A stretch of 64,000 nucleotides of DNA from a virus (lineage: Duplodnaviria > Heunggongvirae > Uroviricota > Caudoviricetes > Herelleviridae): the IMG/VR virus record IMGVR_UViG_2974542590_000001, positions 91,054 to 155,053 of that record; one strand, 5' to 3'. The translations under genes were made by a program, and so were the position numbers. The notes beneath the pieces were generated by a model. It was given only the letters and a program-made list of their open reading frames with translations, did no database searches and was not told where the DNA came from. Below, piece by piece: positions 3,049-20,644 of the stretch; position 1 is the first letter of the stretch; each line of letters starts with the position of its first letter.

Positions 3049-3205
3049 GTTGTCGTTCTCCTTTGGGTTGTTTTAGTTTTATGTGTTGCTTACAGGAACT
3101 AATATAGCAAATTAATATTACAAAGGTAGTCCTAAATCATTACAGTTCTATTACATATTATTACAGTAATAAAAAAGACCCACCCGAAGGTAGGTCATTG
3201 TACTG

Positions 3206-4474
3206 TTACAATTTGTTAGTTCCACCAAGTTGTAACTGGTCAGAAATTCCTGTATTCCCTAATGGGTCGGAGCAGTAACGACTTAGGATATAGATGTCTT
3301 TACCACGTGCAGGAGATTTAGCATCTAGTGCATGAGCAAAAGCAAATCTACAGTTTCCTCGTTGCGCAATCGTTCCGTCATATAGTTTTTGAATATCAGG
3401 AGAAGCCTTGAATGAAGATTTTGTAACATCAAAACGTACGATTTCTTTATTTGTTTTCTTATCCATAATGAATAAGAAATGTTTGTCAGTATCTCTACGT
3501 TTAGAAGATAAGTGCCATCCGTGTAGTGTTACCTGACCTTTGTCACCTCTGATTACGTCTAAACAACCACGGTTAATTAATGCAGGGGCTTTAAAGACTT
3601 TATCTTTTACGTAAAGCTCTTCTTTGCTATCGTTGTTATAACGTAACAAGAAGTAATACTCTTTACCCATAAGATTTTGTGGAGTTAAGCCATTAACAGT
3701 AAAACCAACTTCTGCCCCGTTAGGGTTAGATGGGTATACTTTTTTAACGTCTTCACGAACTACACGTTTACCTTGGAAACGCCCAATTTCTTTGTTTGTA
3801 GCTTTATCCATAAAGTACAACCAGATAGATTGCCCTTTTGTAGACTTGCTAGGAATGAACCATCCTTGTACGTTAAATGCACCAGAGTTTACATTCACAA
3901 TATCAAAGAATGCTTGACGACCGTTTGTTTGACTAGGCTTAGGTGCGCTGTTATTTCCACCTGCCATAAATTGTTTTGCTTGGCGTACAACTTCGTCTAC
4001 GTTCATACCTCCGGGACATGCTGTTGAAGTCACTTCGTTATGACCTAAGACATGTTGGCGGTCACATGGGATACCGTAACGTTTACAAATATCTGCTACT
4101 AATCGAGCACAGTTTGTAACCGTACGAGGGTCAATTGACCAGTTAGGAGCACCACTTGAATTTAAGTTTTCGATACCGATTGAGCGTTGGTTAGGGTTAG
4201 ACATCTTAGGAATATCTGCACCACCAGTTCCTCCTGCGTGCCACGCTGCATATTGTTCACCTACGCAACCGATAATCTCTGTTGGAGTAACCTCATAGTG
4301 AGCAGATGTACCTGCACTACCACCCGCTACCCATGTGTTCATAGCAACATCCTTGTTTGTTGTTGCGTTGTGATGTAGAACAATGCGGTCAATAGCAATA
4401 CCGTTACGACTACCAGAGTTCATCAGTTTAGGGTTAACGCTTGTAATTAAATTACTAAATACTTCGCCTGCCAT
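3206..4474 (-). CDS. N-acetylmuramoyl-L-alanine amidase (amidase_2/PGRP) endolysin with two C-terminal binding repeats
   Basis: The amidase_2 region reads ...IDRIVLHHNATTN...AHYEV...CPGG. Two ~60-aa paralogous C-terminal repeats (..WLYFMDKATNKEIGRF.. and ..FLFIMDKKTNKEIVRF..). AGGAGG RBS 7 nt upstream of the ATG at 4474; the ORF track's 4501 start lacks an RBS. Confidence 0.65.
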   Translation of the reverse strand: MAGEVFSNLITSVNPKLMNSGSRNGIAIDRIVLHHNATTNKDVAMNTWVAGGSAGTSAHYEVTPTEIIGCVGEQYAAWHAGGTGGADIPKMSNPNQRSIGIENLNSSGAPNWSIDPRTVTNCARLVADICKRYGIPCDRQHVLGHNEVTSTACPGGMNVDEVVRQAKQFMAGGNNSAPKPSQTNGRQAFFDIVNVNSGAFNVQGWFIPSKSTKGQSIWLYFMDKATNKEIGRFQGKRVVREDVKKVYPSNPNGAEVGFTVNGLTPQNLMGKEYYFLLRYNNDSKEELYVKDKVFKAPALINRGCLDVIRGDKGQVTLHGWHLSSKRRDTDKHFLFIMDKKTNKEIVRFDVTKSSFKASPDIQKLYDGTIAQRGNCRFAFAHALDAKSPARGKDIYILSRYCSDPLGNTGISDQLQLGGTNKL

Positions 4475-13416: not shown

Positions 13417-13755
13417 GTGAACTATCCAACACACGAAAAGGTCGCAGAAATTACAGTAGGTACTGACAAGGTTTACCTATTTCCACGCTATATGGGCGGA
13501 ACTGTAGTTGATGCACTAACACAAGCTAATGGCTCTGTCAGAGGTAAAGAATTAACTTTCTTGCCTGTTCATACAGGTACTGATAGAACAACAGGTATTC
13601 GATATTTAAATCTACGTCAAGCTACTTTTATTGACTACAAGATGGTAGAGGTACCTACTACAATTACTGACTTGTATTTAGCTCCTAAAGATGAAACTGA
13701 GGAAGCTAAAGAAGCTAGAGAGTATACAATCAAGGAATACTTTGAAACACGGTAA
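13417..13755 (+). CDS. hypothetical protein
   Basis: AAAGGAGA RBS. 112 aa. Confidence 0.5.
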   Translation: MNYPTHEKVAEITVGTDKVYLFPRYMGGTVVDALTQANGSVRGKELTFLPVHTGTDRTTGIRYLNLRQATFIDYKMVEVPTTITDLYLAPKDETEEAKEAREYTIKEYFETR

Positions 13756-13803
13756 GAGGGCATTTTGCTCTCTTTCTTTTTATCTAAAAGTGAATTGTCA
13801 GAA

Positions 13804-13939
13804 AAATGTCCTATTTTAATTTTTTGCAAGTCTTATATATATTAATAATATATAGTCTAATATTTATATAATTTAGATATATAGATTTAATATATAGTAT
13901 TAAGTATATAAGGAGGTCAAAAATTTAAAATAGGACATT
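13804..13939. repeat. second copy of the palindromic element (AAAATGTCCTATTTTAATTTTTT ... AAAAATTTAAAATAGGACATT)
   Basis: Arms at 13804-13826 and 13919-13939. Internal TATATAAGGAGG as in the 6711-6843 copy. Confidence 0.7.
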
Positions 13940-14146
13940 AATTTGAATATTCTGATAATTTAACTATTTATAATCTTTTTTGAACTTTTTGTATTTAGTT
14001 GTTGTCAGGATGATAAAAATGTTGTATACTTTAGTTAGTGATTGACATACCTCAATTACTTCCTCTTTCTTTAAGTCTTTAACTATTGAGTAAGTTGCTG
14101 AATCAGTAGTTAAGAAAAAAGTTGTTAAGTTTGTAAAAAAGTTGCT

Positions 14147-14181
14147 AGTTCTATCAGCTTTTGTGTTATAATGTTGATAGA
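14147..14181 (+). promoter_or_regulatory. sigma-A-type promoter (TTGCTA-N17-TGTTATAAT) overlapped by a 10-bp-arm palindrome
   Basis: The promoter and palindrome read agTTCTATCAgcttttgtgttataatgtTGATAGAAct. Confidence 0.5.
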
Positions 14182-14254
14182 ACTAAAATTCACCTATGAT
14201 GAAACGGTATCATGACTGGCTGTTTTTTCTGACCTGTAATATTGTTTAACTTTT

Positions 14255-14677
14255 ATGCTAAACTCAAAACAGATTGGAAATATAACAGAAATAAAATGTA
14301 TGCTTGCCTTTTTAGAACAAGGATACAACGTTTTAACCCCCTATGGAGATTGTGAAAGATATGATTTTGTTGCTGATATAAAAGGAAATCTTGTTAGAAT
14401 TCAAGTAAAAACTTCAAAATTAGCAAGAAGAGGGAATGGTTTCAATTTCTCAATGAGAAGTAGCAATCGACAAAATGGAGCAATACTTCATCACCGATAT
14501 ACCAAAGAAGAAATTGATTTCTTCGCAACATATTATCAAGATAAATGTTATCTAGTTCCCGTTGAAGAGTGTGGAGCAGAAAAAACATTAAGACTTGACC
14601 CACCAGAAAATGGTCAACGTTATTCGATGGCTGAAGATTATGAATTGGAGGTTATGTTGAAACGATATTATGGCTGA
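14255..14677 (+). CDS. PD-(D/E)xK-family nuclease
   Basis: The motif ..CERYDFVADIKGNLVRIQVKTS.. has a D...(D/E)xK arrangement. Confidence 0.45.
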   Translation: MLNSKQIGNITEIKCMLAFLEQGYNVLTPYGDCERYDFVADIKGNLVRIQVKTSKLARRGNGFNFSMRSSNRQNGAILHHRYTKEEIDFFATYYQDKCYLVPVEECGAEKTLRLDPPENGQRYSMAEDYELEVMLKRYYG

Positions 14678-14815
14678 TGTAGAAAGCAACCAGTTCTTGT
14701 AGGTTCAAGTCCTGCTAGGTGAGTTGCTAGTCAAGATTACTTGGTTAGCAGATTCGTGTTTGTTAATAGCATGATAACCTCCCTCTTCCCCAAATTTAGG
14801 GAGGTTCCACCTTTT

Positions 14816-14887
14816 TGTTAGGTCGTCTAACAGGTAAGACACAATTCTTCGGAAATTGTGATACAGGTTCGAACCCTGTCCTGACAG
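14816..14887 (+). tRNA. tRNA-Arg (anticodon TCG)
   Basis: Hand fold: acceptor TGTTAGG/CCTGACA (one GU pair), D stem GTCT/AGAC, anticodon stem CAATT/AATTG with loop CTTCGGA, T arm ACAGG-TTCGAAC-CCTGT. Confidence 0.6.
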
Positions 14888-14901
14888 TTGTACAGTTACG
14901 G

Positions 14902-14995
14902 CTGTACAAACTATGTTTCTATGTTATAATGGTTGTAGGCTTTTAGAGACATCTCTCTTACCCCTGTTTAATTACAGGGGTTCCCTTTTTGCTTT
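14902..14995 (+). terminator. two hairpins downstream of tRNA-Arg (TTGTACAG-ttacgg-CTGTACAA, and CCCCTGT-ttaatta-ACAGGGG followed by TTCCCTTTTT)
   Basis: Read directly. The second hairpin has a U-rich tail. Confidence 0.45.
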
Positions 14996-15000
14996 TGGAA

Positions 15001-15098
15001 GGTTACTCGAATGGTTAAGAAGTGTTTAATTTGGTATCAGCCAAAGATATTGCAAACAATGACAACATCAGAGTGCAATTACAGAATATCTTCCATCA
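15001..15098 (+). ncRNA. degenerate type-II (Ser-like) tRNA-like element
   Basis: 5' GGAAGGTTACTCGAATGGTTAAGAAG is near-identical to the 5' end of the tRNA-Ser at 21089. The 3' ATCTTCCA can pair with the 5' end, but no canonical T loop is found. Confidence 0.25.
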
Positions 15099-15119
15099 AA
15101 AAAAAATAAAAAAACTTAC

Positions 15120-16230
15120 AAAAAGGTGTTTACAACTTTGTAATGTTATGCTATATTAGTATTACACCACAAGTTAGTGGTTAAAAATTGAAAACTTAAT
15201 AGATTTTGAACCTAGTGCAGAAAGTTTGAACAGCTTGCTAGGATAACGTGGCGTGAATCTGGATGTAACCGAAGGTGCGATAGTGCTTTTGGTTGCAGGT
15301 AGGTCTTATGGTAACATAGGAGTAACTATTAGTAAAAGCTAATATCAGTTAAGCGTTATGTGGAGTATACATGGATTGTAAGGTACAAGACTCTTGGGGG
15401 ATACAATAGACGTTCCTGTGGAAAAGAATCCAAGTTAGGTGGAAGTGTGAGAAGCTTGGCAGACCTTGGAAAACTCAAAAGACTCCCTTTGACGAGAACT
15501 GTAGAAATACAGGTTTAACAAGAGACCTTGGTACAAGTAGCTTAAGTCAGCGTTGGATGAAAATATTACAGAAGACATAAGGATATATGTTAATTAATAC
15601 TTTTAATAGCTGAATGTTTAGGTGAACGTTGTTAGCCACCGTGCTAGACCATACATTAAAGGCAGAGAGAAGCTATCGGGTAGCTCCCGATGGTTCAGCC
15701 TCTCTGAGTATGTGACCGAATGCAGTGAGTGTATATGAAGCAGGAAGAAAAGCCCTTAATCTATTAAGTTTTGAGTTTTTAAACATGTCACTGTGGCGGA
15801 AGTAGAAAATGCTATGGTAGTAAACCTGTTATGAGTAGTTTTTATCTATTAAGTTAACACTTTAATAGGCGTGAGTGGGGCAGTACCACTCCAGTGACTT
15901 AAAGAACCTACGGAAACAATCAATCTTATCGGATGCCGATTGGTTGGCTGAATTAAGCAGTGTGTCTGTGAATCAGTTAATAGGCATAAAATACTAGCAC
16001 AGACGTGTGCCACTCTCAGGTGTAGGTTAGGAGAGAAACATTAGCAACCGAGGGTTGGAAATGGGCGCTCAAAGTACACGAGCAAGGCGATGTCGGTAGT
16101 AATCGACGGAATCGGTGTAGGTTGCTTGATAGAGCTATAACTGCATCTCGTTTATGCGATGTGTTTTTTACAGATTAAATCATTCTAAGAGTGGTATTTT
16201 TATTTTACATAAAGGAGAGAATTTTCTCTT
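15120..16230 (+). ncRNA. ~1.1-kb ORF-free, GC-elevated, highly structured region
   Basis: No ORF of 60 aa or more on either strand, although flanking DNA is densely coding. TTTACA-N17-TATATT promoter at its 5' end. Multiple inverted repeats, e.g. CAGAGAGAAGCTATCGGGTAGCTCCCGATGG...CTCTCTG. Confidence 0.3.
15789..15907 (+). ncRNA. tRNA-like element bounded by GTCACTG...CAGTGAC (paralog of the 20515-20644 element)
   Basis: 5' GTCACTGTGGCGGAAGTAG... and 3' ...AGTGG-ggcagta-CCACT-CCAGTGAC. The same closing helix and TGGCGGAA motif occur at 20515. Confidence 0.3.
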
Positions 16231-16249
16231 TATTATTTTTATAGAAAGT

Positions 16250-16285
16250 GTTGACTTTCTGTACAACACATGATACTATAAGTTT
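16250..16285 (+). promoter_or_regulatory. phage promoter GTGTTGACTT-N17-TATACT
   Basis: gtgttgactttctgtacaacacatgatactataag. It lies upstream of the tRNA block. Confidence 0.5.
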
Positions 16286-16422
16286 ACAAGGTAAGCAGTA
16301 AGGGCTTGTAAGGTTCGAATCCTTAATTACCTATTCCACTTTTAATAGTGGCATGATTTAATTTCTATCTCTCATTATCTTACATTTTTCGGAGGGTTGC
16401 TAGTCCCTCCCCTCCGAATCTT

Positions 16423-16494
16423 GCGCTGTTGGTGTAGTGGCTATCATTTCCGGCTCCAACCCGGAAGACGGGGGTTCGAATCCTTCACGGCGTG
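16423..16494 (+). tRNA. tRNA-Trp (anticodon CCA)
   Basis: Anticodon stem TCCGG/CCGGA with loop CTCCAAC, D loop GTAGTGG, T arm GGGGG-TTCGAAT-CCTTC, and the acceptor pairs with GU pairs. Confidence 0.6.
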
Positions 16495-16636
16495 TATTTT
16501 TGGACAGCGGTGATAGTTATAGTGTATTATCCTTCACAGGAATGAATTACTGGTATGTAGCACTCTACTGGTAATTGTTGAAGAATGTGACGTGTTTACA
16601 AGATTAAAGTCATTCCGCCCCTCTCCATTGAAACAA

Positions 16637-16710
16637 GCTGATATTCCGTAATTGGTAACGGGACACACTTGTAATGTGTATACTTCTAGGTTCGAGTCCT
16701 AGTATCAGCA
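16637..16710 (+). tRNA. tRNA-Thr (anticodon TGT)
   Basis: Acceptor GCTGATA/TATCAGC is a perfect pairing. Anticodon stem ACACA/TGTGT with loop CTTGTAA. T arm CTAGG-TTCGAGT-CCTAG. Confidence 0.7.
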
Positions 16711-16812
16711 TTGTGAGCGGAAACTCACAAATTTATGTTTTGGTTGATTAATTGGTTATCTAGTTAGTTAGCGTGAACATTGCATACAGTTATCTATATA
16801 GAATTTTATCAA

Positions 16813-16884
16813 TAAGCTAGTTTTGTGTCTAGTGGTCTATGTGAGCTTCATAACCTCATGGCGGTTCGATTCCGTAAGGCTTAA
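16813..16884 (+). tRNA. tRNA with CAT anticodon (Met or Ile2); the D arm is weak
   Basis: Anticodon loop TTCATAA in a 4-bp stem. T arm GGCGG-TTCGATT-CCGTA. Acceptor TAAGCTA/AGGCTTA. An alternative perfect pairing GCTAGTT/AACTAGC suggests an extended precursor helix. Confidence 0.4.
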
Positions 16885-16902
16885 CTAGCTATTGGTAATC
16901 TT

Positions 16903-16976
16903 ATCTCCTTAGCTCAGTTGGTGGTAGCACCTGATTCTTAATCAGGGGGTCACAGGTTCGAATCCTGTAGGGGATA
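16903..16976 (+). tRNA. tRNA-Lys (anticodon CTT)
   Basis: Acceptor ATCTCCT/AGGGGAT, D loop AGCTCAGTTGGTGGTAGC, anticodon stem CCTGA/TCAGG with loop TTCTTAA, T arm ACAGG-TTCGAAT-CCTGT. Confidence 0.7.
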
Positions 16977-16978
16977 TT

Positions 16979-17052
16979 CTCGAAGAGTTGGTGTATGGCT
17001 TTGGTAACACGCCTCTTAGGAGGAGCAGGCAGTTCAAATCTGTCAGTCGAGA
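16979..17052 (+). ncRNA. tRNA-like element (T arm + acceptor) with no recognisable anticodon arm
   Basis: T arm GGCAG-TTCAAAT-CTGTC and 5/7-bp acceptor pairing CTCGAAG/AGTCGAG. The central region folds as CCTC-ttag-GAGG rather than an anticodon stem-loop. Confidence 0.3.
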
Positions 17053-17110
17053 CCCTTAGTTTTTCTATTAGTAACGGTTTTTCGAGAGGGTTATCTTGAA
17101 AAACACAACT

Positions 17111-17184
17111 GTCTCCATAGCTCAATCGGCTAGAGCACTCGACTTTTAATCGAGGGGTTCGGGGTTCAAATCCCTGTGGGGACA
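17111..17184 (+). tRNA. tRNA-Lys (anticodon TTT)
   Basis: Acceptor GTCTCCA/TGGGGAC, D stem GCTC/GAGC, anticodon stem CTCGA/TCGAG with loop CTTTTAA, T arm CGGGG-TTCAAAT-CCCTG. Confidence 0.8.
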
Positions 17185-17284
17185 TCGGTTAGTACATTAT
17201 GGTGCCACGGGTGTTTTGTAAGAGGGCACTTACAAGATAAATAAAGCAAGACAGCTTGCTTCCTGCGTAATTACTAACCTAGAA

Positions 17285-17357
17285 CGGCAGTTCGTCCAAT
17301 TGGCTAGGATGCTAGACTACGAATCTAGTGATAGAGGTTCGATTCCTCTGCTGTCGG
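17285..17357 (+). tRNA. tRNA-Arg (anticodon ACG)
   Basis: Acceptor CGGCAGT/GCTGTCG, anticodon stem CTAGA/TCTAG with loop CTACGAA, T arm AGAGG-TTCGATT-CCTCT. Confidence 0.7.
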
Positions 17358-17365
17358 TTAACATA

Positions 17366-17463
17366 CGGGAGTGGCGTGAGGCATACGCACCGTGGAAGAC
17401 ACGGGGAAGTTAATAATTCATGAATAAACCTTCCAATATCGCAGGTTCGAATCCTGCCTTCCG
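17366..17463 (+). ncRNA. 98-nt tRNA-like gene with long extra arm and 5-nt loop where the anticodon loop is expected
   Basis: Acceptor ACGGGAG/CTTCCGT, D stem GCGT/ACGC, extra arm GGAAG...CTTCC, T arm GCAGG-TTCGAAT-CCTGC. The stem CCGTG/CACGG closes the loop GAAGA. Confidence 0.3.
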
Positions 17464-18808: not shown

Positions 18809-19960
18809 GTGAGCCTTATGGAACGACTAAAAGCATACAAATTCAGAATCTATCCAACAGAAGAACAAGAAATATTCTTTGCCAAATCTTTTGGTTGTGT
18901 CCGTAAGGTCTACAATCTAATGCTTGATGACCGAATGAAAACTTATGAAGAAACGAAGAATGACCCCTCTAAAAAAATGAGTTTTCCAACACCTGCGAAA
19001 TATAAAAATGATTTTCCGTTTTTGAAAGAAGTGGACAGTCTTGCTCTAGCCAATGCCCAACTTAATTTAGATAAAGCATATAAGAATTTCTTTCGAGATA
19101 AATCCGTTGGATTTCCTCGATTCAAAAGTAAGAAGAATCCAGTTCAAAGTTATACGACTAATAATCAAAATGGAACAATTGCTTTGATTGATAATAAATT
19201 TATCAAAATTCCTAAGTTGAAGTCACTAGTTAGAATCAAACTTCATAGACAGCCTAAAGGAATCATTAAGTCAGCTACAATATCACGTCATTCAAGTGGT
19301 AAATATTATATTTCCTTATTGTGTAAAGAAGAAATTATAGAATTACCTAAAACTAATTCTACAATTGGTATTGACTTAGGTATTATGGACTTTGCGATTC
19401 TTTCTGACGGACAAAAAATTGATAATAATAAATTCACGTCCAAAATGGAAAAGAAATTGAAACGTGAACAACGTAAGTTGTCTAGACGAGCTTTGGTAGC
19501 TAAAAAGAAAGGCGTAAACCTTTCTGAAGCTAAAAACTACCAAAAACAAAAACGTAAAGTCGCTCGTTTACACGAAAAAGTAGTGAATCAACGTACTGAT
19601 TTTCTGAATAAGTTGAGTACAGAAATTATCAAAAACCACGATATTATCTGTATTGAAGACTTAAACACAAAAGGTATGTTGCGTAATCATAAATTAGCAA
19701 AAAGTATTTCTGATGTGTCTTGGTCTAGTTTTGTAACTAAATTACAATACAAGGCTGACTGGTATGGACGAAAAATCATTAAAGTAGATAAATGGTTTCC
19801 ATCAAGTCAAATTTGTTCAGAATGTGGACATAAAGATGGCAAGAAATCTCTCGAAATTCGAGAATGGACTTGTCCTATTTGCCATACCCGACATGACCGA
19901 GACATCAACGCTAGTATAAACATTCTGAACGAAGGTCTACGAATACAATCACTAGTTTAG
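18809..19960 (+). CDS. tnpB: TnpB (IS200/IS605-family OrfB, RNA-guided RuvC nuclease)
   Basis: N-terminus MERLKAYKFRIYPTEEQE. C-terminal zinc finger CSECGHKDG...CPICHTRHDRDINASINIL (RuvC-III). GAGCC RBS. No tnpA nearby. Confidence 0.8.
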   Translation: MSLMERLKAYKFRIYPTEEQEIFFAKSFGCVRKVYNLMLDDRMKTYEETKNDPSKKMSFPTPAKYKNDFPFLKEVDSLALANAQLNLDKAYKNFFRDKSVGFPRFKSKKNPVQSYTTNNQNGTIALIDNKFIKIPKLKSLVRIKLHRQPKGIIKSATISRHSSGKYYISLLCKEEIIELPKTNSTIGIDLGIMDFAILSDGQKIDNNKFTSKMEKKLKREQRKLSRRALVAKKKGVNLSEAKNYQKQKRKVARLHEKVVNQRTDFLNKLSTEIIKNHDIICIEDLNTKGMLRNHKLAKSISDVSWSSFVTKLQYKADWYGRKIIKVDKWFPSSQICSECGHKDGKKSLEIREWTCPICHTRHDRDINASINILNEGLRIQSLV

Positions 19961-20160
19961 ATAAAAACAATAACCGTAGGAACTACGGGGATAGCTTGGT
20001 AAATAAGAGACACCGCTGTTAGTAAAAAAATAAACTATCAAGTATGCTCTATTCCCAAGAAGCTCCCACTTCAAGCGTAAGAAACCGCTAGGTTTAGCTA
20101 AGTGGTGAGTAGTTCACCCCATTCATAAGAAAAATGTTGATATATAAAGTGGTATTTTTT
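19930..20160 (+). ncRNA. expected omega-RNA / right-end region of the TnpB element (boundaries undefined)
   Basis: Placed by inference from TnpB-system architecture: the guide RNA scaffold overlaps the 3' end of tnpB and the right end. The sequence here is ORF-free and structured. Confidence 0.25.
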
Positions 20161-20449
20161 CAGAAGTGGGAAATCATAAATAATCTAGTTCACAAAGTGA
20201 TTATGTGGGTATGGCGGAATTGGTATATGATGTGAACTTCTCAGTTCAAGTCTGGGTGGAGGTATTACACATATAAAATAAAGTGCGAGGTCAATCATAT
20301 CATTACGATAGTGGATTGAATGATTAGGGTAAAAGACTAACAATCTCCTAATCTAAGAATAGGTAAGTTCCGTTAAATGTCACCCGTGTCCGTCTAAGTA
20401 CGTAAGGTAGAAGTTACACAAAGACAACTTTATTTTATTGGTTCCTTAG

Positions 20450-20515
20450 TGTAGTGGTTATCACATCGCCCTGTCACGGCGAAGATCACAGATTAAATTC
20501 CCGTCAGTTCCATAG
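20450..20515 (+). pseudogene. degenerate tRNA-Asp (GTC)
   Basis: 5' two-thirds is canonical (GGTTCCTTAGTGTAGTGGTTATCACATCGCCCTGTCACGGCGAAG). The T arm (CACAG-ATTAAAT-TCCCG) and 3' acceptor (CAGTTCC instead of AGGAACC) are not. Confidence 0.4.
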
Positions 20516-20644
20516 TCACTGTGGCGGAATAGGTAGACGTATAAGTAGCCAATACTAAAAACGTAGGGTATTTGGAGCTTATTTGAGGGATAGATAGGCG
20601 ACGGCTCGTTCCCAACTGCAAGGTGCAAATCCTTGCCAGTGACA
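20515..20644 (+). ncRNA. tRNA-like gene (Leu-like 5' end GTCACTGTGGCGGAATAGGTAGACG) with ~60-nt internal insertion
   Basis: Perfect acceptor GTCACTG/CAGTGAC and T arm CAAGG-TGCAAAT-CCTTG. The interior is far longer than any variable arm. Confidence 0.3.

Follow-up and report, generated by a model that had tools for sequence, protein, structure and literature searches.

What occupies a 1.1 kb stretch without genes in the genome of a tailed phage? The question is raised by positions 15,120–16,230 of a 64,000-nt stretch of DNA from the IMG/VR virus record IMGVR_UViG_2974542590_000001 (positions 91,054–155,053), which was analysed as a whole and is called the window in the following. The 1.2 kb around the locus is 100 % identical to KY549443, the genome of Enterococcus phage EFP01 (Herelleviridae, Brockvirinae, Schiekvirus), whose record carries no annotation across this part. 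A preliminary description made from the sequence alone had proposed a long non-coding RNA, a decayed intron or ribozyme, or an array of degenerate tRNA-like units. The stretch is composed of two unrelated RNAs which were set side by side by recombination and does not represent one feature. Probably, both belong to a single non-coding transcription unit within the EFP01 tRNA island: a ROOL RNA and, designated element X, a recently acquired modular RNA of Enterococcus temperate phages, in which it mostly occupies the long leader of the ArpU-activated late operon.

The claim that no open reading frame (ORF) of 60 amino acids or more lies on either strand of 15,120–16,230 was borne out, the longest ones comprising at most 54 amino acids. 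By the same threshold the ORF-free gap actually extends from 14,678 to 16,900 and is, with 2223 nt, the longest of the window. The GC content is only modestly raised (39.0 % versus 36.5 % in the window), which corresponds to the 87th percentile among 1111-nt windows, so that the wording "well above background" was too strong; the tRNA island as a whole (14,700–17,400) reaches 40.2 %. The tRNAs of this island, which houses both ROOL and X, were located by ARAGORN and Rfam at 14,815, 16,422, 16,637, 16,902, 17,110, 17,285, 20,440 and 21,089.

The ROOL RNA and its promoter

The Rfam scan that the preliminary description had suggested was run over the whole window; it detected ROOL (RF03087) in the first half of the stretch and nothing for X. 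The ROOL RNA is located at 15,187–15,773 on the plus strand; with 264.8 bits it is far above the gathering threshold of 99.1 (E 2e-59). The match over 587 nt comprises model positions 1–574 of 574 without truncation, including the full-length architecture of a terminal helix around multi-stem junctions. It is a bona fide ROOL RNA of the known family, and the proposal of a long non-coding RNA was correct for this half. The inverted repeat CAGAGAGAAGCTATCGGGTAGCTCCCGATGG...CTCTCTG mentioned in the preliminary description exists at 15,663–15,706 on the plus strand. It is a local hairpin and not a long-range pairing, as it forms an internal ROOL helix which is paired in the model at positions ~455–507.

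ROOL has been described as an ornate RNA of ~581 nt from phages and prophages, frequently found near tRNAs (Weinberg et al. 2017, PMC5737381). By cryo-EM it was demonstrated that ROOL RNAs, one of them from E. faecalis, assemble into hexameric or octameric RNA-only nanocages (PMC12286853, PMC12990946, PMC12191101), and the structures are listed as PDB 9J3T, 9J6Y and 9MDS (PMC12990946). The E. faecalis ROOL is represented by PDB 9ISV, 9J3R and 9J3T. These cages were shown for the ROOLs of E. faecalis, L. salivarius and env-120, which are other sequences than the ROOL of EFP01. Since Kretsch et al. surveyed the phage genomes present in GenBank in March 2024 with the Rfam ROOL model, the EFP01 copy is already catalogued despite the unannotated record. 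Its context, with a match to the whole model, a phage host, adjacent tRNAs and a promoter of its own, is typical of the family. The RNA itself is no different from other members; what distinguishes a few Schiekviruses is a foreign RNA rather than a tRNA directly 3′ of it.

EfV12-phi1 and the Kochikohdavirus vB_EfaM_Ef2.3 possess orthologues with scores of 260.1 and 268.9 bits, respectively, both preceded by a promoter, and 68 phage records match the ROOL part at 80–100 % identity. Base changes in the terminal helix compensate each other when Schiekvirus and Kochikohdavirus are compared (CTTAATAGAT/ATCTATTAAG versus CTTAATATAATAG/CTATTATATTAAG). ROOL has a host-type promoter of its own and is inherited vertically across the Brockvirinae. 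In EFP01 this promoter is of the sigma-70 type and consists of TTTACA, a 17-nt spacer and TATATT with a TG-extended −10 element (score 10/12 with the TG). The motif had been recognized before with coordinates of 15,124–15,152 which are 5 nt off; the correct position is 15,129–15,157 on the plus strand. It is identical in Porthos and EfV12-phi1, and a stronger, near-consensus promoter (TTGACA) exists at the equivalent place upstream of ROOL in Kochikohdavirus. The surrounding 14,700–16,700 contains no excess of promoter-like sites (5 observed, 5.0 expected). The promoter at 15,129–15,157 is presumed to be the start of the non-coding transcription unit, and none was found between ROOL and X.

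Element X and its relatives in temperate phages

Element X extends from 15,785 to 16,240, with 13 nt between ROOL and X. No Rfam family was detected for X even at E<10 over 13,700–16,450, nor in scans of several relatives, and blastn detected no paralogue of X in the window. Only six distinct Schiekviruses in GenBank possess X, with an identity of at least 98.7 %. EfV12-phi1 lacks it, and there a tRNA-Met-like gene directly follows ROOL, succeeded by the tRNAs for Asp, Glu and Met. In Porthos, X separates ROOL from those tRNAs, and a direct duplication of 43 nt from the ROOL 3′ end flanks it, the copies being located at ~3140–3182 and 3643–3685 in the Porthos-type locus L002; EfV12-phi1 has a single copy (comparisons of L002 and L003 were read by eye). 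The corresponding stretch of EFP01 at 15,740–15,782 on the plus strand, which comprises the ROOL 3′ end and the spacer, is the left junction of the insertion. At the right side, four tRNAs between two terminators are missing in EFP01, and the end of X is joined to what lies, in EfV12-phi1, beyond the terminator of the second tRNA-Met; a deletion between two similar terminators would fit this arrangement. The junction itself is a hybrid terminator-like hairpin with a T-run (16,214–16,240, plus strand) resembling that terminator. It ends the unit ahead of the next promoter (16,251–16,279).

The origin of X became apparent from a search of plasmid records. Homologues with 84–95 % identity are present in non-mobilisable E. 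faecium "plasmids" of 36–58 kb, which are in fact genomes of temperate phages. In three annotated cases the match is on the gene strand, inside a non-coding gap of 800–950 nt that separates the gene of a late activator of the ArpU family from the HNH/terS packaging genes. At the start of this leader gap there are three direct repeats of 7 nt, which read TGGCGGT in two types, and a promoter; a strong terminator closes it, directly ahead of the first late gene's ribosome-binding site. Three 7-nt repeats with a promoter are the ArpU-binding design shown experimentally for phiFL2A (Quiles-Puchalt et al. 2013, PMC3753634). The relatives of X resemble the late-operon leaders activated by RinA, ArpU or Ltr in that they are found downstream of such repeats and a promoter after the ArpU gene. 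However, that work covers the DNA repeats and the activator; a structured leader of 700–900 nt, a tRNA-like head and the terminator are not described in it, and the word tRNA is absent (PMC3753634).

The 3′ end of X carries further marks of this leader. At 16,141–16,169 (plus strand) an intrinsic terminator-like hairpin with a T-run is homologous to the temperate leader terminator of the L026/L072 type. It is followed at 16,177–16,219 (plus strand) by a vestige of the donor's second terminator and by the donor ribosome-binding site ACATAAAGGAG, as seen in the alignment to GATCACTCnnTGAGTGGTCTTTTTATTTT...AAAGGAGG, a sequence located ahead of the first late gene of temperate phages. Element X is therefore a horizontally acquired piece of a temperate-phage leader, spanning the tRNA-like element to the ribosome-binding site.

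Four records (OR846730, OR848098, OR848937 and PQ554527) match the Enterococcus temperate-phage leader at 84–92 %. They include ones named Listeria phage LM 4-11-1 and 4-14-1 and Acinetobacter phage D2SVT. In a collection of species-representative genomes, the core of X was matched in three Enterococcus species and in one 518-nt contig labelled Vibrio olivae (L093). The host labels or assemblies of the Listeria and Acinetobacter records and of the Vibrio contig look doubtful.

The tRNA-like head, the core and the exchangeable modules

At its 5′ end X possesses a tRNA-like structure (TLS) of subtype 2 at 15,787–15,899 on the plus strand. It is built from a 7-bp acceptor stem (GTCACTG/CAGTGAC), a D-arm (GCGG...TGC), an insert of 60 nt which replaces the anticodon arm, and a T-arm-like hairpin (GAGTGG GGCAGTA CCACTC) with a 6-bp stem and a 7-nt loop. 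The GTCACTG...CAGTGAC element noticed earlier is thus real (15,787–15,898) and has a chance expectation of 0; it represents one tRNA-like unit, and the suggested array does not exist. In the minimum-free-energy fold the acceptor stem and the T-arm are retained, and a minimal relative of 77 nt folds into a cloverleaf. An alignment of the spliced acceptor stem and T-arm (A2) has 98.2 % of its cells paired, compared with 22–51 % in slid controls, and four T-stem pairs show double changes.

Nevertheless, the element is not a tRNA. Both ARAGORN and the Rfam tRNA model RF00005 rejected the EFP01 TLS, the most tRNA-like relative of 77 nt had no tRNA match at E<10 in a search over 101 nt, and 0 of the 91 unique TLS variants were called tRNA by ARAGORN, nor was any tmRNA reported. 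The TLS is a mimic of the acceptor/T-arm half which is conserved across its relatives. A resemblance of 12–15 nt between its insert and the terminal ROOL helix (E ~3.6) was taken as chance.

Two subtypes can be distinguished. In subtype 1, which is the commoner one, a GG D-loop accompanies the stem GCAAKG, whose loop is TTCRAWT or TGCAAAT; in subtype 2, to which the EFP01 copy belongs, an AGTAGAA D-loop is combined with a GWGTGG stem and other loops. Most copies have a T at position −1 and CCA-less, U-rich trailers. Comparable elements are the mascRNA of MALAT1, the tRNA-like domain of tmRNA, the bacterial YrlA Y RNAs and the stable species 1 and 2 RNAs of the tRNA cluster of phage T4. Like these, the TLS has an acceptor stem stacked on a T-arm and no decoding anticodon loop. 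It also shares the CCA-less, U-rich 3′ trailer, the U at −1 and a location at which tRNA-maturation enzymes already act, and subtype 1 in addition the T-psi-C-type loop and the GG D-loop. In contrast, no sequence relationship exists, the 6-bp T stem results in a stack of 13 bp, the anticodon arm is replaced by inserts of 25–190 nt, and processing is predicted.

A second TLS copy was found by motif search at 20,515–20,644, starting 2 nt 3′ of a weak tRNA (20,440–20,512, 37.6 bits, GTC anticodon). It reads GTCACTGTGGCGGAATAGGTAGACG...GCAAGG TGCAAAT CCTTGC CAGTGAC and is followed by a hairpin with a T-run and by no core.

A scan with the 5′ motif of the TLS recovered at least 119 viral contigs; 91 unique relatives were collected. 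In all collected loci together 181 TLS instances were counted, with lengths of 76–359 nt. The commonest TLS gave two partial matches only when compared with GenBank phages. Downstream of the TLS either the core (44 cases), directly the GCAACC module (~40) or other modules are situated, some of which contain true tRNAs, as in L007 (68.9 bits, UUU anticodon loop) and in the phiFL1A leader (70.2 bits). An ArpU homologue is encoded within 1.5 kb upstream on the same strand in 73 of the 127 TLS copies with enough upstream DNA, and the others are found in different contexts.

The second conserved part is a pseudoknotted core domain of ~140 nt at 15,904–16,044 on the plus strand, supported by pair counts, by RNAalifold and by the 25–30-bit matches of a divergent relative (see below). 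It contains the hairpins H1 (15,917–15,946), H2 (15,948–15,976), H3 (15,997–16,010) and H4 (16,013–16,035), all on the plus strand, and a pseudoknot in which AACCTAC (15,905–15,911) is complementary to GTAGGTT (16,022–16,028) in the loop of H4. An alignment of 22 distinct sequences (A1) has 99.7 % of the core cells paired versus 24–42 % after sliding, with double compensatory changes in five pairs, and its covariation score was reached by 0 of 500 shuffles. RNAalifold independently chooses the long-range pairing AACCUACG:UGUAGGUU. The U-G pairs of H1 and H4 would turn into A-C mismatches if the opposite strand were read; therefore, the RNA of X corresponds to the plus strand. A covariance model built from the family (R1) matches the window once, at 15,904–16,044 with 164.3 bits, by construction, as this sequence was part of the training alignment.

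Pattern scans of IMG/VR revealed ~42 distinct variants of the core. About 40 further IMG/VR loci sharing only the 16-mer GAACCTACGGAAACAA were rejected as chance matches (≤17.5 bits with the family's own model), as were three environmental matches to a degenerate pattern, and a metagenome scan added no intermediate forms. A divergent relative, designated core-prime, exists in other Schiekviruses, where it scores 25–30 bits with the same model above a noise of at most 17.5 bits over ~0.7 Mb. It is located between a pseudo-tRNA-Met(CAT) and tRNA-Asp, in the block lost from EFP01 (L003 3277–3399, L002 3776–3900, L004 3277–3400 and L006 3762–3899, as well as L099, L112 and L116). Its pseudoknot ACCGC:GCGGU is in register with AACCUAC:GUAGGUU of X, which amounts to two double compensations (read by eye). 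The presence of core-prime in sister phages indicates that the order of ROOL, tRNA-like gene and core is native to the genus and that X recreates it.

The core is followed by a variable module (16,043–16,126, plus strand) with conserved flanks, predicted by folding to be closed by the stem AGCAACC (16,043–16,049)/GGTTGCT (16,120–16,126). Its interior is swapped among at least five versions in the relatives. The TLS, the core and the closing stems are intact in every Schiekvirus copy examined in GenBank, IMG/VR and metagenomes.

In their location in phages or prophages near tRNAs, in the joining of a conserved domain to variable ones and in the occasional embedding of true tRNAs, X and its relatives resemble GOLLD, which can carry covalently linked tRNAs (PMC12286853). 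However, X is unrelated to GOLLD in sequence and helices, is smaller and is confined to Enterococcus phages. The GOLLD model (RF01998) had no match at E<10 in 13,700–16,450, at E<1 in L007–L009 and at the gathering threshold in eight further loci.

Competing explanations, the surrounding island and implications

How might such a unit work? The promoter at 15,129–15,157 would drive a single transcript through ROOL and X up to the terminators. RNase P might cleave 5′ of G15787, where a T is found at −1 as in most copies, and RNase Z after the CCA-less, U-rich acceptor end near 15,899. Such cuts would trim the 3′ end of ROOL, detach X from it and set the core free as a stable RNA. By analogy, the native core-prime of sister phages would be punctuated by its flanking tRNAs. 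Somewhat short of even chances, a broader hypothesis may be put forward: the X family would comprise undescribed modular RNAs of Enterococcus phages, consisting of a decoding-incompetent tRNA mimic as head, with two co-varying D-loop/T-arm subtypes, and of exchangeable modules (core, GCAACC module, true tRNAs). They would be made from the ArpU late promoter, excised by tRNA-processing enzymes and act in trans as stable RNAs late in infection, and a lytic Schiekvirus would have captured one beside ROOL in replacement of a distantly related native RNA. That RNAs of this family are functional in temperate phages is rather probable; for X in EFP01 the balance between function and no function is even. 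No description of the TLS or of a leader RNA was found in the searchable literature, and X, which is outside Rfam 15, is a candidate for a new RNA family.

Several observations weigh against this interpretation. Transcription, processing by RNase P and RNase Z and stability of the RNA are inferred. The T-loop of subtype 2 (GGCAGTA) has no T-psi-C consensus and its D-loop no GG, and for this reason recognition of the EFP01 TLS by RNase P is not assured. Variation in the acceptor stem of alignment A2 is restricted to wobble pairs and mismatches, with no double compensation. The covariation family is narrow and recombining, with few independent events, and related sequences can beat shuffle controls without any structure. 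Folding energies do not discriminate either: the z-score of 15,780–16,172, a check suggested in the preliminary description, is −2.5 on the plus and −2.1 on the minus strand, so that the strands are not separated. In Kochikohdavirus ROOL is followed by a long hairpin and not directly by a tRNA, and consequently a definition of the ROOL 3′ end by RNase P cannot be general. The distribution of X among Schiekviruses is patchy, and the variation within the genus (~18 variable sites among five copies) is too small for a selection test.

As the main rival explanation, X may be non-functional recombination debris, a fragment of a temperate late leader which hitch-hiked into a few Schiekviruses and has not yet decayed, so that only ROOL matters. 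This explanation is less probable than not. Over 146 nt the core does not differ from temperate copies such as L007, and the transfer is therefore recent. X is present in six distinct GenBank genomes only, compared with the 68 phage records that match the region, and it has carried along a useless vestigial ribosome-binding site and a degenerate second terminator. The first terminator at 16,141–16,169 is weakened in EFP01 by one mismatch (GCGATG versus GAGATG in Porthos), and damaged tRNAs and endonuclease insertions give the island a mosaic structure. On the other hand, the TLS, the core and the closing stems have remained undamaged in all Schiekvirus copies examined, and X is inserted in sense orientation into an RNA operon at the place where sister phages possess a tRNA-like gene and a related core. 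Furthermore, EFP01 has lost the native core and four tRNAs, yet kept X.

It is improbable that the whole 1.1 kb constitutes one extended ROOL-type RNA in which X would be a 3′ domain peculiar to this lineage. The short gap of 13 nt with no promoter in it would agree with such a domain, as would the duplication of the ROOL 3′ strand after X in Porthos, by which X could formally loop inside the terminal helix, and the tRNAs covalently linked to GOLLD, a comparable RNA (PMC12286853). The ROOL model is, however, complete at 15,773, most ROOL-bearing relatives lack X, and Rfam scans of 11 loci found no ROOL near the relatives of X in temperate phages. Still less can be said for a conserved DNA site, either a cos or pac packaging site or a binding site for a regulator upstream of the terminase genes. 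Cos sites are often located just upstream of HNH/terS, the very position of X in temperate phages, and two sequence motifs recall ArpU boxes: TGGCGGAAAG in the D-arm of the TLS (15,794–15,803) is nearly identical to the middle box of phiFL1A (L089 2500–2540), and GTGTAGGTT, which occurs twice in the core, resembles the TGTAGGG repeats of another ArpU type (L009 3660–3700). The helices are, however, preserved by double compensatory changes, the U-G pairs are compatible with a plus-strand RNA only, and the element is found with different terminase types, with three types of ArpU boxes and in other contexts including the tRNA island of a lytic phage. The TGGCGG/TGTAGG likeness was put down to coincidence, since phages that differ in their boxes share the same TLS and nothing equivalent exists for a third type of box (TTATACC); a role of the two motifs as regulator decoys is nevertheless conceivable. 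Hardly any credit can be given to a decayed intron, ribozyme or pseudogene. The region is indeed ORF-free and structured, and the island holds one true gene interruption in tRNA-Asn. However, no Rfam intron (group I or II) or ribozyme family matched at E<10 over 13,700–16,450, X is an intergenic insertion relative to EfV12-phi1 and interrupts no gene, and its homologues are non-coding everywhere, with module swaps which break any reading frame and, in the stretch itself, ORFs of at most 54 amino acids; the decayed intron or ribozyme proposed in the preliminary description is not supported.

The non-coding unit of ROOL and X is surrounded by further irregular elements. Upstream of the island, between the last upstream gene and the tRNAs, a very AT-rich segment (13,800–14,100, 20–25 % GC) with many TATATA-type repeats is kept in Porthos. 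The gene for tRNA-Asn(GTT), spanning ~14,190–14,723, is interrupted exactly 3′ of the anticodon by an insertion of 469 nt (14,226–14,694), and its intact counterpart in Porthos is gactggctgttaaccagttcttgtagg. The insertion contains an ORF (14,255–14,677) for a 140-amino acid PD-(D/E)XK endonuclease (Pfam PF11645, E 1.6e-32), the family of the tRNA-intron homing endonuclease I-Ssp6803I. The insertion has no group I intron match and only ~46 nt beyond the ORF, which would suit either an inserted endonuclease gene without an intron or an intron of a very unusual kind. At 14,997–15,097 a remnant of tRNA-Ser has kept its first ~24 and last ~9 nt, the middle being swapped for unrelated sequence of similar length. 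This gene is intact in EfV12-phi1, and in Porthos its middle is replaced differently from EFP01.

Downstream of X, positions 16,251–16,332 comprise a promoter (TTGACT-N17-TACTAT with TG, 16,251–16,279) and a 44-nt element resembling a tRNA minihelix, with an acceptor-like stem and TAAGG TTCGAAT CCTTA and no D or anticodon arm, which is kept in EfV12-phi1 and Porthos. Within the island a TnpB-type protein of 383 amino acids (OrfB_IS605, Cas12f1-like TNB and HTH_OrfB_IS605; annotated as transposase) is encoded at 18,809–19,960. The ORF-free 500 nt 3′ of its gene (19,961–20,460) could contain the guide (omega) RNA and the right end of the TnpB-type element. In sister Schiekviruses, one or two HNH endonuclease genes are situated directly upstream of the ROOL promoter (L004 1061–2502, L005 1424–2002, L006 1924–2502). 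The tRNA island is a hotspot of homing-endonuclease traffic, and its mosaic state may result from this.

What follows from these data differs for the two halves. The ROOL half offers nothing new except an annotation that is absent from the GenBank record. It places the nanocage-forming RNA family, however, in a genetically tractable lytic phage and its host (a Schiekvirus and E. faecium), for which variants with other sequences fused to the 3′ end of the RNA exist in nature. The X half points to a modular RNA family with a tRNA mimic as head and without an Rfam model. If the mimic is a processing handle, phages would use the tRNA-maturation machinery for the excision of RNAs that are not tRNAs, similar to tRNA punctuation and mascRNA. 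The exchange of X between temperate and lytic phages would show that such RNAs are portable functional cargo, and if the hypothesis of a modular family acting in trans is true, a common function would be implied for the non-tRNA RNAs of phage tRNA islands. The natural presence and absence of X in EFP01, Porthos and EfV12-phi1 makes the role of ROOL- and GOLLD-type RNAs in these islands more directly testable.

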